Shown: positions 36,239 to 52,168 of the stretch, one piece after another
How positions within the stretch are numbered: position 1 is the first letter of the stretch
Layout of the letters: each line of letters starts with the position of its first letter
Source of the DNA: an uncultured virus (IMG/VR IMGVR_UViG_3300047476_001538)
Taxonomy: Duplodnaviria > Heunggongvirae > Uroviricota > Caudoviricetes
Strand: one strand, 5' to 3'
Virus record (IMG/VR): IMGVR_UViG_3300047476_001538
Coordinates: 11,772 to 75,771 of that record
DNA length: 64,000 nucleotides
Made by a program: the position numbers and the translations under genes
The notes under the pieces: generated by a model
Told to the model about the DNA's origin: nothing
Database searches by the model: none
The model's input: the letters and a program-made list of their open reading frames with translations, nothing else

Positions 36239-36697
36239 ATGAAAATTTTTGAAATAATATTGGATCAAGTGAGCAACACTGCTCTATTTGAGATGGCTTT
36301 TGAAAGAAAAAATGCCATCAATGCTGTAAGAGGCAAAGCAAAGCCTATAGTAGATCATTTAATTTACTTATTGATTTACAAAAACTCAAAAGCAAGAAAT
36401 CACTGGAAAAGTGAGTTATCAGCATTTATTGATAGCATTGATTATTTGTATTTGAAACCTAGCAAAAGAAAACTGTCAGGAAATGATTATTATAATCTTT
36501 TGTTTGAAGAACCGTTGGGCGGAGATATAATTCAAACTGAAAAACTAATAAATCAGGCTATTAGAAAAGAAGGCAATCCTGATATAAAAGTAAACCCATA
36601 TATACTCAAGGAATCCCTTGAAAAAATCATACATAAATTAAGTTTTGATTTAGCAAACGATCAATACATATCTATAGATGATTATGAGAATTTTTGA
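36239..36697 (+). CDS. DUF29-like helical protein, paralog 1
   Basis: MKIFEII..LFE-MAF; DHLI.L..NHW..E. Confidence 0.7.
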   Translation: MKIFEIILDQVSNTALFEMAFERKNAINAVRGKAKPIVDHLIYLLIYKNSKARNHWKSELSAFIDSIDYLYLKPSKRKLSGNDYYNLLFEEPLGGDIIQTEKLINQAIRKEGNPDIKVNPYILKESLEKIIHKLSFDLANDQYISIDDYENF

Positions 36698-37160
36698 AAT
36701 AATATTGGATCAAGTGAGCAACACTGCTCTATTTGAGATGGCATTCAAAAAACGAGAGGTCAGAGACAAGTTTGTCAATCAAAGCTATCAAATCGCAGAA
36801 CATTTAGTGAAAATCTTAGCATATGATGATCCGCAAAATTACAATCATTGGTGCGCCGAGATCAACGCTTTCCTAAAACCTCTTTGGGCTCTTCGTTGGG
36901 ATGGTAAAAAATTACTGAGTAAAGAAGAGATAATGAAATGCTTGTGGAAAAGTTTTTTAGAAAACGGAGAATACGATATTCAAGGAATAATCAAGAGTCT
37001 TGATATGATTGATGGTTATGCTGCCCCAAGAAATATTCGCACCACTTCGCAAATAAACTCTACCTTGATAAACATATACACCAAGTTAAGTGACTTATTA
37101 TCACGAGGCAAAAGAACGCCAATTCAAACTATACTACAAGAATTAGGCGTGAATTTATGA
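36684..37160 (+). CDS. DUF29-like helical protein, paralog 2
   Basis: Leader nearly identical in DNA to paralog 1; EHLVK..NHW..EI. Confidence 0.7.
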   Translation: MRIFEIILDQVSNTALFEMAFKKREVRDKFVNQSYQIAEHLVKILAYDDPQNYNHWCAEINAFLKPLWALRWDGKKLLSKEEIMKCLWKSFLENGEYDIQGIIKSLDMIDGYAAPRNIRTTSQINSTLINIYTKLSDLLSRGKRTPIQTILQELGVNL

Positions 37161-37642
37161 GAATTTCCGAAGTTATCCTTGACAAATTAAACGAAACTGC
37201 TCTATTTGAGATGGCTTTTGATAGGAAAGAAGCCATAAAAAAGTTTCAGAATCTTGACTACCAGATTCAAAGACATCTTATTAAAATAACAGCGTTCAAA
37301 GATGGGTTAAATTACCAACATCATTGTGGAGAAATCAACGGTTGGTTAGATCATCTAAATGATGTAAAATGGAACAGAACTCAATATCTTAGCAAATATA
37401 TCATCATGAAATGCTTATGGGAGGGTCCATTGGGTCATGGTGCTATTGCTGTTGAAGATGGCGTGAAAACTCTGATCAGAGTACATCGGTACAGTGTGCC
37501 GCGAAACGACTTATCCATTCACAGAATATATGAACTGCTATTCAAAATTTACGATGAAATGTCATTTGATTTGAGTAATGGAAACGTAAACAACATTCAG
37601 CATTACTTGACAAAAAACGGCTATTACGTACAGAATCCCTGA
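37157..37642 (+). CDS. DUF29-like helical protein, paralog 3
   Basis: MRISEVI..LFE-MAF; RHLIK..HH..EI. Confidence 0.7.
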   Translation: MRISEVILDKLNETALFEMAFDRKEAIKKFQNLDYQIQRHLIKITAFKDGLNYQHHCGEINGWLDHLNDVKWNRTQYLSKYIIMKCLWEGPLGHGAIAVEDGVKTLIRVHRYSVPRNDLSIHRIYELLFKIYDEMSFDLSNGNVNNIQHYLTKNGYYVQNP

Positions 37643-37690: not shown

Positions 37691-37804
37691 ATGGAAAAAA
37701 CTGTAACCGTTATTTTAAAAACTACTTTGTCAATATTTCTTTTATCGCTTGCTTTTTCTGTTGGGTGGTTTCTGAATCAAGTGATGAAAAATATTATTAC
37801 GTAA
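37691..37804 (+). CDS. 37-aa predicted membrane peptide (not in ORF track)
   Basis: GAGGA RBS, late-like box GTAAATA; hydrophobic segment. Confidence 0.5.
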   Translation: MEKTVTVILKTTLSIFLLSLAFSVGWFLNQVMKNIIT

Positions 37805-37850
37805 GCGACGTGTGATAAATAAAAGAGTAGGAAGGCAACACCCGACTAGC

Positions 37851-37930
37851 CTATCAAAAAGTATACTGTCTACTGGCGTATGAGACAACACTGCTCATAA
37901 TAAAGGTCCAAACAGTATACTTTTTGATAG
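37851..37930 (+). ncRNA. Long hairpin with internal bubble, candidate ncRNA
   Basis: Perfect 19-bp inverted repeat; inner TATGAG/CTCATA stem; GATAAATA at 37814. Confidence 0.5.
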
Positions 37931-37969
37931 ACGAGAAAGGATTTGAATTAAACAATGGTTGTATATCTT

Positions 37970-38280
37970 TCAAAGTGAAGGCATTGCGGACGGCGGTTCG
38001 ATCCCGCCCATTTCCAAAAATTTCTCTTCAAGATCATTCGACTGAGTGATCTTGTGGGGAATGACATGGTTTCGACGTGGTGAGATAGTGGAGAAGGCAA
38101 CCCGAGAGATGTCTGACGTAATCAGCATAAACATTATAGATGCTAAATCTACAAAAACTTCTGGAACTGTTACTGTATCTGGTAAGGGCATGAAATTTTC
38201 TGCTCGCACCGCTGTACGTGGAGTTGCGCTAGCCTAAGAAACTGGCACCAGCGGAGTTGATCACTCTGTTACAAGAACGA
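37970..38280 (+). ncRNA. ssrA: Circularly permuted (two-piece) tmRNA; outer ends approximate
   Basis: T-arm GGCGG-TTCGATC-CCGCC plus CATTTCC-A (38009-16) precedes the 5' strand GGGAATG (38057-63; G3.U70) and GGTTTCGAC; tag frame 38142-38237 ends VALA. Confidence 0.9.
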
Positions 38281-38285
38281 TTAAG

Positions 38286-38312
38286 AAAGCCCCTTTATTG
38301 GGGCTTTTCTTT
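38286..38312 (+). terminator. Intrinsic terminator after tmRNA
   Basis: AAAGCCCC-tttatt-GGGGCTTT plus T-tract. Confidence 0.85.
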
Positions 38313-38314
38313 GC

Positions 38315-38343
38315 TTGACATTCAGCAAACATTGTGTTATCAT
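38315..38343 (+). promoter_or_regulatory. Sigma70 promoter
   Basis: TTGACA-N17-TATCAT. Confidence 0.75.
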
Positions 38344-38374
38344 ATATTTTTTAATTACGCTTTAGGAGGATCAT

Positions 38375-39256
38375 ATGGGATCTTACACTAAGTTGTTGGC
38401 TAAACACATCAATCCGCCCCACTGGCTCGAAGACAATGTGATGTTCGAGGGCCTAACTGGTTCAGTTGCTTATGCTGTATCTAATGATATGTCAGATATG
38501 GATATTGTCGGATTTTGTATTCCGCCTAAAGAAATTGTATTCCCTCATTTAGGCGGAGAGATACCAGGGTTCGGTACACCTAAACCACGCTTTGATGACT
38601 TTCAAAAGCATCACATCAAACACGATCAACGTGAATATGATATTACCATTTACTCAATTGTAAAGTTTTTTCAATTGGTAATGGAGAACAATCCTAATAT
38701 GGTTGATGCTTTGTTCTTACCAAGGCGTTGTGTATTACACAGTACTCAGATTTATGAACATGTTCGGGATCACAGGAGTATGTTCTTGCACAAAGGATCA
38801 TGGTACAAATTTAGAGGCTATGCTTACAGCCAATTAAGTAAGATTAGAACTAAAAGCAACGCTTCTAATCCCAAGCGACAGGCTTCTATCGAAAAGTACG
38901 GCTACGATGTTAAATTTGCTTATCACATCGTTAGGTTGATGCTAGAAGTCGAACAAATTTTAGCTGAACACGATCTTGACCTACAACGTAACTCTGATAT
39001 TCTAAAAACTATTAGAAACGGAGAATGGACTTTTGAAAATATTGAATCTTGGTTTGATAACAAAGAAAAGTCACTTGAGATGTTGTATGCTAATTCAACA
39101 TTGCCCGCTAGACCAAATGAATCTAAAATTAAATCACTGCTAATGGAGTGTTTAGAGATGCATTATGGATCACTTGAGACCGTTATTCAAGTGTCTCCGC
39201 AAATGTCAAATTTAGTTGATGAATTAAAACGATTAACAGAGAAATATAATAGGTAG
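38375..39256 (+). CDS. RlaP/Nuc-transf-like nucleotidyltransferase
   Basis: GSVAY..SDMDIVG, NPN, GYA, YDVKFAYH..RL. Confidence 0.85.
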   Translation: MGSYTKLLAKHINPPHWLEDNVMFEGLTGSVAYAVSNDMSDMDIVGFCIPPKEIVFPHLGGEIPGFGTPKPRFDDFQKHHIKHDQREYDITIYSIVKFFQLVMENNPNMVDALFLPRRCVLHSTQIYEHVRDHRSMFLHKGSWYKFRGYAYSQLSKIRTKSNASNPKRQASIEKYGYDVKFAYHIVRLMLEVEQILAEHDLDLQRNSDILKTIRNGEWTFENIESWFDNKEKSLEMLYANSTLPARPNESKIKSLLMECLEMHYGSLETVIQVSPQMSNLVDELKRLTEKYNR

Positions 39257-39262
39257 TGCAAT

Positions 39263-39679
39263 ATGAAACTATTCTTAGATTGCGAATTTAATGAGTTCAA
39301 AGGTGAATTGATATCTATGGCTCTGGTGGCCGAAGATGGTCAAGAGTTCTACGAGGTGTTAGCTTGTCCTTCTCCTGGTCCCTGGGTCAAGGAACACGTT
39401 ATTCCTATTTTAAATAGAAACCCAGTAACTTTTGACATATTCCAATGGTTGTTGCAGGAATTTCTAATGCGATTTGATAGAATTCATATCGTTGCTGATT
39501 GGCCAGAAGACATCAAACACTTTTGCGATTCACTGATAACTGGACCAGGTGTGCGATTGAATACTCCGCCTCTGACAATGTCAATTCATCGTTTTGATGC
39601 TGAATCAACTCTGCCACATAATGCACTACACGATGCCAGAGGCATTATGGAATATTGGTTAAACAACAAGTACAACTAG
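39263..39679 (+). CDS. DEDDh 3'-5' exoribonuclease (RNase AS-like)
   Basis: FLDCEF, WVKEHV.P, HNALHDA. Confidence 0.8.
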   Translation: MKLFLDCEFNEFKGELISMALVAEDGQEFYEVLACPSPGPWVKEHVIPILNRNPVTFDIFQWLLQEFLMRFDRIHIVADWPEDIKHFCDSLITGPGVRLNTPPLTMSIHRFDAESTLPHNALHDARGIMEYWLNNKYN

Positions 39680-50768: not shown

Positions 50769-50839
50769 CGCCCGATAAATATGAGTAATCGAAGAGGAAA
50801 AATTATACTGGTTGATTTGTTGATGATAAATAATCAATA

Positions 50840-50913
50840 CGGCCTTGACGAGATTCGAACTCGTAACCTTCCCATTAGTCAAGCAGGCGCTCTGTCCATT
50901 GAGCTACAAGGCC
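50840..50913 (-). tRNA. tRNA-like gene with aberrant anticodon arm (nominal GAC/Val, uncertain), no encoded CCA
   Basis: GGCCTTG/CAAGGCC, GCTC/GAGC D-stem, ACGAG-TTCGAAT-CTCGT; promoter TTGACT-N17-TAATAT at 50948-50920. Confidence 0.75.
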
Positions 50914-50996
50914 GTGTCTATATTACACGATTATCATCAGGCAGTCAAGGTAAATTTTTATGGCAGTCTTCGGCGTAGATAAATAAGATTTATAAT

Positions 50997-52079: not shown

Positions 52080-52168
52080 GGGGTGGTGGCGGAATTGGTA
52101 GACGCGCTTGATTGCCAATTAAGTGGCTCTTGTATGTCGTAAAGGTTCGAATCCCTTTCACTCCACCA
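52080..52168 (+). tRNA. tRNA with GCC (Gly) anticodon, Ala-type acceptor stem and long variable arm
   Basis: GGGGTGG/TCACTCC-A-CCA (G3.U70); CTTGA-TT GCC AA-TTAAG; 17-nt variable region. Confidence 0.88.

Follow-up and report, generated by a model that had tools for sequence, protein, structure and literature searches.

Can a tmRNA gene whose two halves are encoded in reverse order, and whose acceptor end lacks an encoded CCA, rescue ribosomes for a phage, and what purpose could be served by the long peptide tag that it would write? These questions are raised by a locus near the middle of the window, the term used here for the whole 64,000-nucleotide stretch of viral DNA that was analyzed, which forms part of an IMG/VR virus record of 75.8 kb, 21% complete by CheckV's estimate. 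The original prediction described a circularly permuted two-piece tmRNA encoded by a phage, and asked that ARAGORN or permuted covariance models be run on it. Run on the sequence, ARAGORN reports a permuted tmRNA (37927-38328) whose tag is precisely the 31-residue one first proposed, and two Rfam models exceed their gathering scores, RF04321 (tmRNA_permuted) with 110.4 bits (E 1e-20; gathering score 47) and RF01850 (beta_tmRNA) with 102.4 bits (E 5e-30; gathering score 84). The combined support from Rfam and ARAGORN is far above chance. The parts of the gene are as follows.

37957..38016, plus strand: predicted acceptor piece, the 3' half of the tRNA-like domain, encoded first (Rfam alignment, sequence and family covariation fold)
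37957-62, plus strand: outer P2 strand GGUUGU, acceptor piece
37969-72, plus strand: middle helix strand, acceptor piece
37982-37988, plus strand: inner P2 strand CAUUGCG (CATTGCG in the DNA), acceptor piece
37992-38008, plus strand: T arm, acceptor piece
38009-38015, plus strand: acceptor 3' strand CAUUUCC (CATTTCC), from the sequence
38016, plus strand: discriminator A, from the sequence, followed by AAA
38017-38056, plus strand: intervening segment of 40 nt, proposed to be excised, starting AAAA where relatives have CCA
38029-38054, plus strand: 11-bp hairpin within the intervening segment, from the fold
38057..38141, plus strand: 5' part of the predicted coding piece (Rfam alignment and family consensus fold)
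38057-38063, plus strand: acceptor 5' strand GGGAAUG (GGGAATG), from the sequence
after GGGAAUG and before the P2 strand CGUGGUG, plus strand: D-loop analogue TGGTTTCGAC / ACAUGGUUUCGA, coding piece
38076-38082, plus strand: inner P2 strand CGUGGUG (CGTGGTG), coding piece
38089-92, plus strand: middle helix strand, coding piece
38097-38102, plus strand: outer P2 strand GCAACC, coding piece
38103-38118, plus strand: PK1-region hairpin, coding piece
38137-39, plus strand: frame signal UAG, by comparison with E. coli U85/A86/G87 (PMC2481249)
38142..38237, plus strand: tag frame, with resume codon GCU at 38142, 31 codons and stop UAA at 38235-38237 (ARAGORN and homologous tags)
38238..38308, plus strand: 3' trailer of the coding piece and intrinsic terminator (stem 38285-38308, then a T run)
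38315..38343, plus strand: sigma-70-like promoter TTGACA-17-TATCAT, assigned to the next gene and marking the end of the tmRNA unit

The anatomy agrees with the prediction at each of these points. The 3' acceptor half lies upstream of the 5' half, and GGGAAUG (38057-63) pairs with CAUUUCC (38009-15) to give a 7-bp acceptor stem with G3.U70. The three P2 helices, of 6, 4 and 7 pairs, all form in the window and join the two pieces, and folding recovers the 11-bp hairpin of the 40-nt intervening segment. As had been claimed, CCA is not encoded, A38016 being followed by AAA; the resume context is UAGAU-GCU, the 31-codon frame closes with TAA, and a terminator lies downstream of the tag. The U-A-G signal occupies positions -5 to -3 of the resume codon, the same spacing as in E. 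coli, where the resume signal is U85/A86/G87 and A86 is essential (PMC2481249). The family's PK1-region hairpin has two non-pairs in the window, where another register is found that is common to L093, and the segment could instead form a hairpin of 5 pairs closed by a GAUG loop. No promoter of the tmRNA's own could be assigned in the window, and no riboswitch family reaches its Rfam gathering score anywhere in it.

What kind of genome does the gene come from? That it is encoded by a phage, as first proposed, follows from the virus record itself, the T4-type PolB and the phage genes on either side; the tmRNA lies mid-contig, with no contig end or integrase adjoining. The window PolB is 48% identical to that of Sinorhizobium phage Phosso, 45% to that of Agrobacterium phage Atu_ph07 and about 42% to those of Rak2-like phages, making jumbo myophages the closest group, and it is 61-62% identical to the PolB of uncultured phages of 317-344 kb, which include tag carriers with complete genomes of 340-344 kb and a genome that is complete with terminal repeats. 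Several studies have freshwater or lake metagenomes that contain near-identical DNA, and the identical sequence is present at depth in several independent lake metagenomes. We consider it highly probable, judging from the sequence, that the source is an uncultured freshwater jumbo phage and that the gene is a functional two-piece (circularly permuted, beta-type) tmRNA.

The surroundings of the gene include several other features. Just upstream, at 37851-37930, is an inverted repeat whose 19-bp stem is perfect and whose loop measures 42 nt; it follows a GATAAATA box (37813-37820), has no T run behind it, and could be a precursor processing site or a separate small RNA. Between this hairpin and the last upstream gene lies a 37-codon ORF (37693-37806) whose middle is hydrophobic and membrane-like, and three tandem paralogues of 152, 160 and 161 aa (phrog_31822, mutual identity 32-43%) occupy 36239-37642. 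Directly 3' of the tmRNA, at 38375-39679, are a gene for an RlaP-type nucleotidyltransferase (PF10127, of the RNA-repair Pol-beta family) and an RNase H-like gene (phrog_2259). Relatives of RlaP in several other jumbo-phage contigs have tRNA genes within a few kb, and in L044, L059 and L073/L074 the tRNAs begin less than 500 nt downstream. Elsewhere in the window are an 89-nt tRNA-like gene with a GCC anticodon, a long variable arm and an acceptor with G3.U70 (52080-52168) and, on the minus strand at 50839-50914, a tRNA-Val-like gene without encoded CCA.

Permuted tmRNAs were picked up by a pattern scan in 37 viral contigs; L079 and L080, which matched the pattern GGGAATGNNNTGGTTTCGAC, were rejected as chance matches inside coding sequence. 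The nearest relatives of the window's RNA body are low-GC viral copies, with 70-74% identity over the tRNA-like domain and at most 92% over part of it; the bacterial beta-type genes of Rhodocyclaceae and Cupriavidus have 67-69%. The tmRNA gene had no blastn match among isolate phages, against which L091 matched only in T-arm-sized pieces, and a metagenome scan with a T-arm/acceptor word returned only other tmRNA types and no close relative of the window gene. The view that the locus is a fragment of host ssrA, left as the attachment-site remnant of a temperate element or introduced by binning contamination, deserves next to no weight, for while tmRNA genes are frequent integration sites (PMC9004378, PMC11915505) and some IMG/VR matches with host-like tags may be prophage borders, the gene here is complete and flanked by phage genes in mid-contig, a strict exact-pattern scan for the acceptor-piece type in one genome from each of 185,579 bacterial species gave 0 matches, the bacterial beta-type genes (GC 58-67%) are farther away than the phage copies, and the tag profile found just one chance-level match in the order harboring beta-type tmRNAs, of which 401 bacterial genomes were searched.

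Is the RNA fold itself maintained? When 17 unique family sequences were folded to a consensus, each as its two halves fused without the spacer, the acceptor stem, the T arm, the three P2 helices and the PK1-region hairpin all emerged. Compensatory double changes are found in 20 of the 33 pairs of the tRNA-like domain in this 17-sequence fold, and the P2 helices have them in 10 of 17 pairs. The pairs G1-C72, G2-C71 and G3.U70 are invariant in the family, and acceptor positions 4-7 covary. The window forms every consensus pair but two, both in the PK1-region hairpin, and its 40-nt spacer compares with spacers of 29-127 nt in the relatives. By this covariation, the RNA fold is under selection.

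Studies of the tag lead to a much larger family. The tag region is often annotated, spuriously, as an ORF by gene callers, and when this ORF was used as bait against 5.8 billion proteins, it brought in a first relative of 64% identity and a copy of the same tag behind a different RNA body. A profile search then yielded 102 protein clusters, and the core G-[ET]-V-[TK]-V-S-G-K-x-[VIMF]-[KR]-F-[SG]-A-R is present in all 102. The distinct tags number 84, with lengths of 27-33 residues and a mode of 29, and every one has a net positive charge, from +2 to +6, versus about -2 for the E. coli tag. The tags end in LAV (50), FAV (20), VAA (12), ALA (11), ALV (4) and a few other triplets, the canonical LAA occurring in none. 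At least 75 IMG/VR loci encode such a tag, and in 41 of these loci ARAGORN independently calls a permuted tmRNA with a long basic tag. The window tag has the features that define the family (the core G-[ET]-V-[TK]-V-S-(x)-G-K-x-[VIMF]-[KR]-F, 27-33 residues, a net positive charge and three non-polar residues at the end) and aligns with it over its whole length, with a net charge of about +6 and the end -V-A-L-A; it is the second-longest and most basic of the tags. Thus the notion of a tag peculiar to one phage has to be given up, since the window tag is a divergent member of a large phage-borne family. A family tag had no tblastn match in the INPHARED isolate phages, the ESM Atlas gave no usable match for the tag, and no second copy of its motif was found in four jumbo-phage genomes of the clade (two complete, two partial).

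The substitution patterns within the tag fit selection on the peptide, and not on the RNA alone. Between the window and its relatives pS is about 0.68, near saturation, while pN is 0.30-0.36; differences between the window and the other members number 2617, 1871 and 3648 at the three codon positions, with the third position dominating. The pooled pN/pS over the whole tag, variable ends included, is only 0.62. Indels in the tag keep both the frame and the C-terminal motif, and a common SNP of the lake population, 38180 T>C, is synonymous. Moreover, the same tag stands behind quite different upstream RNA sequences, a constancy that is hard to explain by RNA constraint alone.

Transcription is touched on by a single RNA-library sequence, a freshwater metatranscriptome contig (run X20) that covers 38160-38256 of a variant and may derive from DNA; its depth of 3.3 is too low to be taken as expression, and a contig does not reveal RNA ends. 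It contains the 3' two-thirds of the window tag with two differences, behind a different 5' part, and the codon after UAUAAAU is GGC and not GCU, which would make it a glycine-resume variant.

If the peptide is selected, could it simply be the product of an ordinary small protein gene with a start of its own, for example the 42- or 63-codon ORF ending at 38237, and no trans-translation? Such ORFs are predicted by gene callers in about 100 metagenome clusters, and 11 codons before the resume codon there is an AUG. However, what lies upstream of the resume codon is a structured tmRNA body that is completely different between members sharing the tag, and the frame begins exactly after the U-A-G frame signal. 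Considering also that no Shine-Dalgarno sequence was seen for the small-protein ORF, and that L091 has an in-frame stop 12 codons upstream of its resume codon, this explanation is very improbable.

The absence of an encoded CCA raises a more substantial doubt. Among the parsed family members the triplet after the discriminator is CCA in 14, CCG in 7, CCT in 3 and AAA in 4, the window included. The recurrence of incomplete or absent CCA suggests that loss of the encoded triplet is tolerated in the family, which would imply 3' trimming followed by CCA addition. The window has four tRNA-like genes, of which three encode CCA and the fourth lacks it. Neither SmpB nor a CCA enzyme of the PolyA_pol type was found in the fragment, in two complete relatives (G006 and G008 in the case of SmpB) or in three partial relatives, and so host factors are presumably used. 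There is a precedent in phage T4, whose tRNAs without CCA need host RNase BN and the CCA-adding enzyme. The RlaP protein encoded next door was considered as a CCA supplier and dropped for want of support: 36 RlaP relatives have no adjoining tmRNA, the exception being L040, and no long-tag locus has RlaP within 3 kb.

The tmRNA locus of L040 has a history of its own. This closest relative (L040:2725-3935, IMGVR_UViG_3300001580_000005) is syntenic with window 37950-38375, and its downstream protein is 94% identical, but the tmRNA cassette has been replaced. A decayed remnant of a window-type acceptor piece, 84% identical and with an acceptor strand that no longer fits GGG, is followed by an ORF for a SegE-type GIY-YIG homing endonuclease and then by a different, complete permuted tmRNA, in which CCA is encoded, the spacer is about 100 nt and the apparent resume codon is GAC; this gene was missed by ARAGORN. 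Its tag has 26 residues and ends ...ASNDDFALAA. Beyond it, homology to the window resumes in the trailer, terminator and promoter (82% identity, also for the trailer).

The L040 tag (L040:3541-3932) belongs to a second long-tag family in viral permuted tmRNAs, found also in L005, L014, L019 and L251. These tags have about 25 residues, with an N-terminal extension (F-x-F...V-x-V) before a canonical A-S-N-D-x-F-A-L-A-A end, and it looks as if the resume point has moved upstream of an ordinary tag. Four contigs with permuted tmRNAs (L004, L005, L019 and L022) also have one or two CUA-anticodon tRNAs nearby (amber suppressors, labeled Pyl by ARAGORN), the distance being about 5.7 kb in L019 and about 0.3-1 kb in the other three, which hints at stop-codon recoding in those phages. 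Finally, L081 (1395-1464), L082 and the Tara and other contigs L084, L086, L087 and L090 contain mini tmRNA-like genes in standard order and with no tag frame; they combine the window's acceptor stem (GGGAATG...CATTTCC) and a T arm with a short hairpin in place of the mRNA-like domain. The mini gene of L081 lies within a tRNA cluster, directly upstream of a gene for a SegE-type GIY-YIG endonuclease.

Might the window gene, then, be a decaying copy or a decoy, never charged for want of an encoded CCA, and either junk or a blocker of host trans-translation? The replacement of CCA by AAA, the instability of the locus in this lineage as seen in L040, and the frame-less mini genes of related contigs all point that way, as does the precedent of DS6A, in which, as cited in PMC11915505, a frame-less tmRNA-like gene blocks host trans-translation. 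Against this, all stems of the tRNA-like domain are intact with G3.U70 kept, and the tag frame is both open and conserved. The family counts, with AAA in three other members and CCG or CCT in ten, argue that an absent CCA is tolerated, and at least one other tRNA-like gene of the same phage lacks it. It is also difficult to see a decaying copy in a sequence that recurs unchanged, and at depth, in independent lake metagenomes. We therefore regard the decay or decoy explanation as quite unlikely, and return to the functional two-piece tmRNA.

How would such a gene work? The anatomy, the family conservation, the covariation and the conservation of the peptide are matters of observation; every biochemical step in what follows, and the identity of the reader of the tag, we infer. 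A single precursor would start at an upstream promoter and end at the terminator (38285-38308). Host RNase P would cut 5' of G38057, and the acceptor piece would be trimmed back to A38016 and completed by the host CCA-adding enzyme, so as to end in ...CAUUUCCA-CCA, with the 40-nt spacer being discarded. The acceptor stem and the three P2 helices would hold the two pieces together, host AlaRS would charge the RNA through G3.U70, and host SmpB and EF-Tu would deliver the charged RNA to ribosomes stalled on broken mRNA, which is expected to be abundant once the phage degrades host mRNA. Translation would then resume at GCU 38142, adding alanine and the 31-residue basic tag.

What would become of the tagged proteins? 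The complete and near-complete genomes of the clade encode ClpP (257-270 bits), ClpX and a ClpA-like double AAA+ protein. In the complete genome G006 the ClpX gene lies at about 182.7 kb, the ClpP gene at about 207.0 kb and the ClpA-like gene at about 270.3 kb. The ClpX has 398 residues, matches solved ClpX with E 1e-120, and retains the zinc finger and an intact GYVG, while its RKH loop reads RKQ. G001, the closest relative of the window, has ClpP and the ClpA-like gene; no Clp gene is present in the window fragment, which has little meaning at 21% completeness. Two candidate links were rejected. The Clp genes are not specific to the long tag, since ClpP is encoded as well by large phages whose tags are canonical and by one phage that has no tmRNA, and the idea of an altered ClpX reading loop was dropped because a change of just RKH to RKQ, with GYVG intact, is no clear change. 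In three genomes with tags of canonical length (G023:C1:131116-132169, G024:C1:82553-83606 and G028:C1:164046-164924), a ClpP-like gene lies directly beside the permuted tmRNA, at less than 500 nt.

Small, non-polar residues in the last three positions are the general character of C-terminal signals read by ClpX, ClpA and Tsp. The -ALA end of the window tag, one of several non-polar ends in the family, looks like a degron end and not like the loss of one. Most likely the non-polar C-terminus would still serve as a Clp-type degron, and the conserved basic core would bind an adaptor or unfoldase, for which the ClpX/ClpA/ClpP set of the complete relatives could be the partner. A tentative extension, possible on these data, is that the clade uses a private tagging code. 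Here the two-piece tmRNA would write a conserved basic tag of about 29 residues that is found in no searched bacterial genome, and phage ClpX or ClpA with ClpP, or another adaptor, would recognize the core. Truncated host proteins would thereby pass to phage-controlled proteolysis or another fate, independent of host SspB/ClpXP.

Perhaps the tag is not a degradation signal at all. In that case the basic, hairpin-like core would send host fragments elsewhere; they might, for example, be sequestered, bound to nucleic acid or a phage factor, or shielded from host SspB/ClpXP, and ribosomes would be rescued without host-controlled proteolysis. The core of about 15 residues is indeed far more conserved than a simple degron requires, and the uniformly positive charge of the tags, the lack of any canonical LAA end and the failure to find a similar peptide elsewhere, in the four clade genomes or the ESM Atlas, are in keeping with such a role. 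Nonetheless, the last three residues are always small and non-polar, as in the signals just mentioned, and the clade retains ClpP together with a ClpX whose GYVG pore loop is intact and whose RKH loop is nearly so. We judge this alternative unlikely, and keep the Clp-type degron, with a core bound by an adaptor or unfoldase, as the working model.

The kind of gene described here is not new. Phage two-piece tmRNAs have been published, accounting for 53 of 133 unique phage tmRNAs, mostly aquatic (Buchholz 2022, PMC9004378), huge phages carry tmRNAs (PMC7162821), and a 2025 tmRNA database holds 79 phage sequences, taken from RefSeq viruses. Annotations tend to record phage tmRNAs and take them no further. 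The original prediction stands in that a complete permuted gene is present in a phage genome, while the kind had already been described; likewise the 31 residues of the "unusually long" tag are confirmed, yet they fall inside the published range of 8-35 residues (PMC8012679). Judged by the searches made, the new part is a conserved family of long basic tags, of 27-33 residues, seen only on phage DNA; no description of a long basic tag was found in the literature.

This means that the tag itself, beyond the RNA, appears to be kept under selection across uncultured giant phages world-wide, and that it is unlike the bacterial tags seen here. A vague idea of phage ribosome rescue is turned into testable ones, namely which protease or adaptor reads the tag, and whether host proteins are recycled after destruction of the host mRNA. 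For working two-piece tmRNAs, the family suggests that the encoded CCA, the spacer length and the PK1 region are free to vary. In these phages, tmRNA genes are exchanged as cassettes beside homing endonucleases.

The nearest known system is the bacterial beta-type two-piece tmRNA (RF01850), found in Rhodocyclaceae such as Azonexus/Dechloromonas and Thauera and in some Cupriavidus. It shares with the window the permuted order, the tRNA-like domain, the P2 helices and G3.U70, at the roughly 67-69% identity in the RNA body given above. The bacterial copies, however, encode CCA and tags of about 10 acidic residues ending in LAA, and they contain a conserved promoter segment where the window's alignment shows a deletion, whereas the window gene is low in GC, belongs to a phage, lacks CCA and encodes a basic tag of 31 residues. 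Within the long basic tag family (for example L180-L254, L091 and P0003-P0102), the window shares the core, the length of 27-33 residues, the charge, the non-polar end and the beta-type body. Its tag departs from the family in being longer by two residues at the N-terminus, in having T in place of E before VTV, an M within the core and -VALA at the C-terminus, and in carrying the highest charge. In its PK1 region the window is similar to L093, whose tag is different, and the gene neighborhood is not common to the window and the family.

Long tags are known elsewhere as well. In work reportedly done by Gur and Sauer in 2008, a Mycoplasma tmRNA tag of about 27 residues is said to be read by Lon, the extra length being recognized by a protease other than ClpXP. 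There is no sequence similarity between that tag and the window's, and Mycoplasma lacks Clp, whereas the phage clade has ClpX, ClpP and a ClpA-like protein.

Among phages, the two-piece tmRNAs of aquatic myophages (OM43 phage Melnitz, pelagimyophages and cyanophages; PMC9004378) resemble the window in being complete permuted ssrA genes of large, lytic-type phages from aquatic samples, and ribosome rescue and host-protein recycling have been proposed as their roles (PMC9004378). The Melnitz gene is of the alphaproteobacterial type and comes with a glutamine riboswitch; the window gene is of the beta type, with a long basic tag and no riboswitch at the gathering score. The mycobacteriophage DS6A provides another phage-borne tmRNA derivative, which, as cited in PMC11915505, consists of the tRNA-like domain only and inhibits host tmRNA. 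The mini forms in related contigs (L081, L084-L090) are DS6A-like. The window gene is not of this type, for it carries the full, conserved tag frame of 31 codons.
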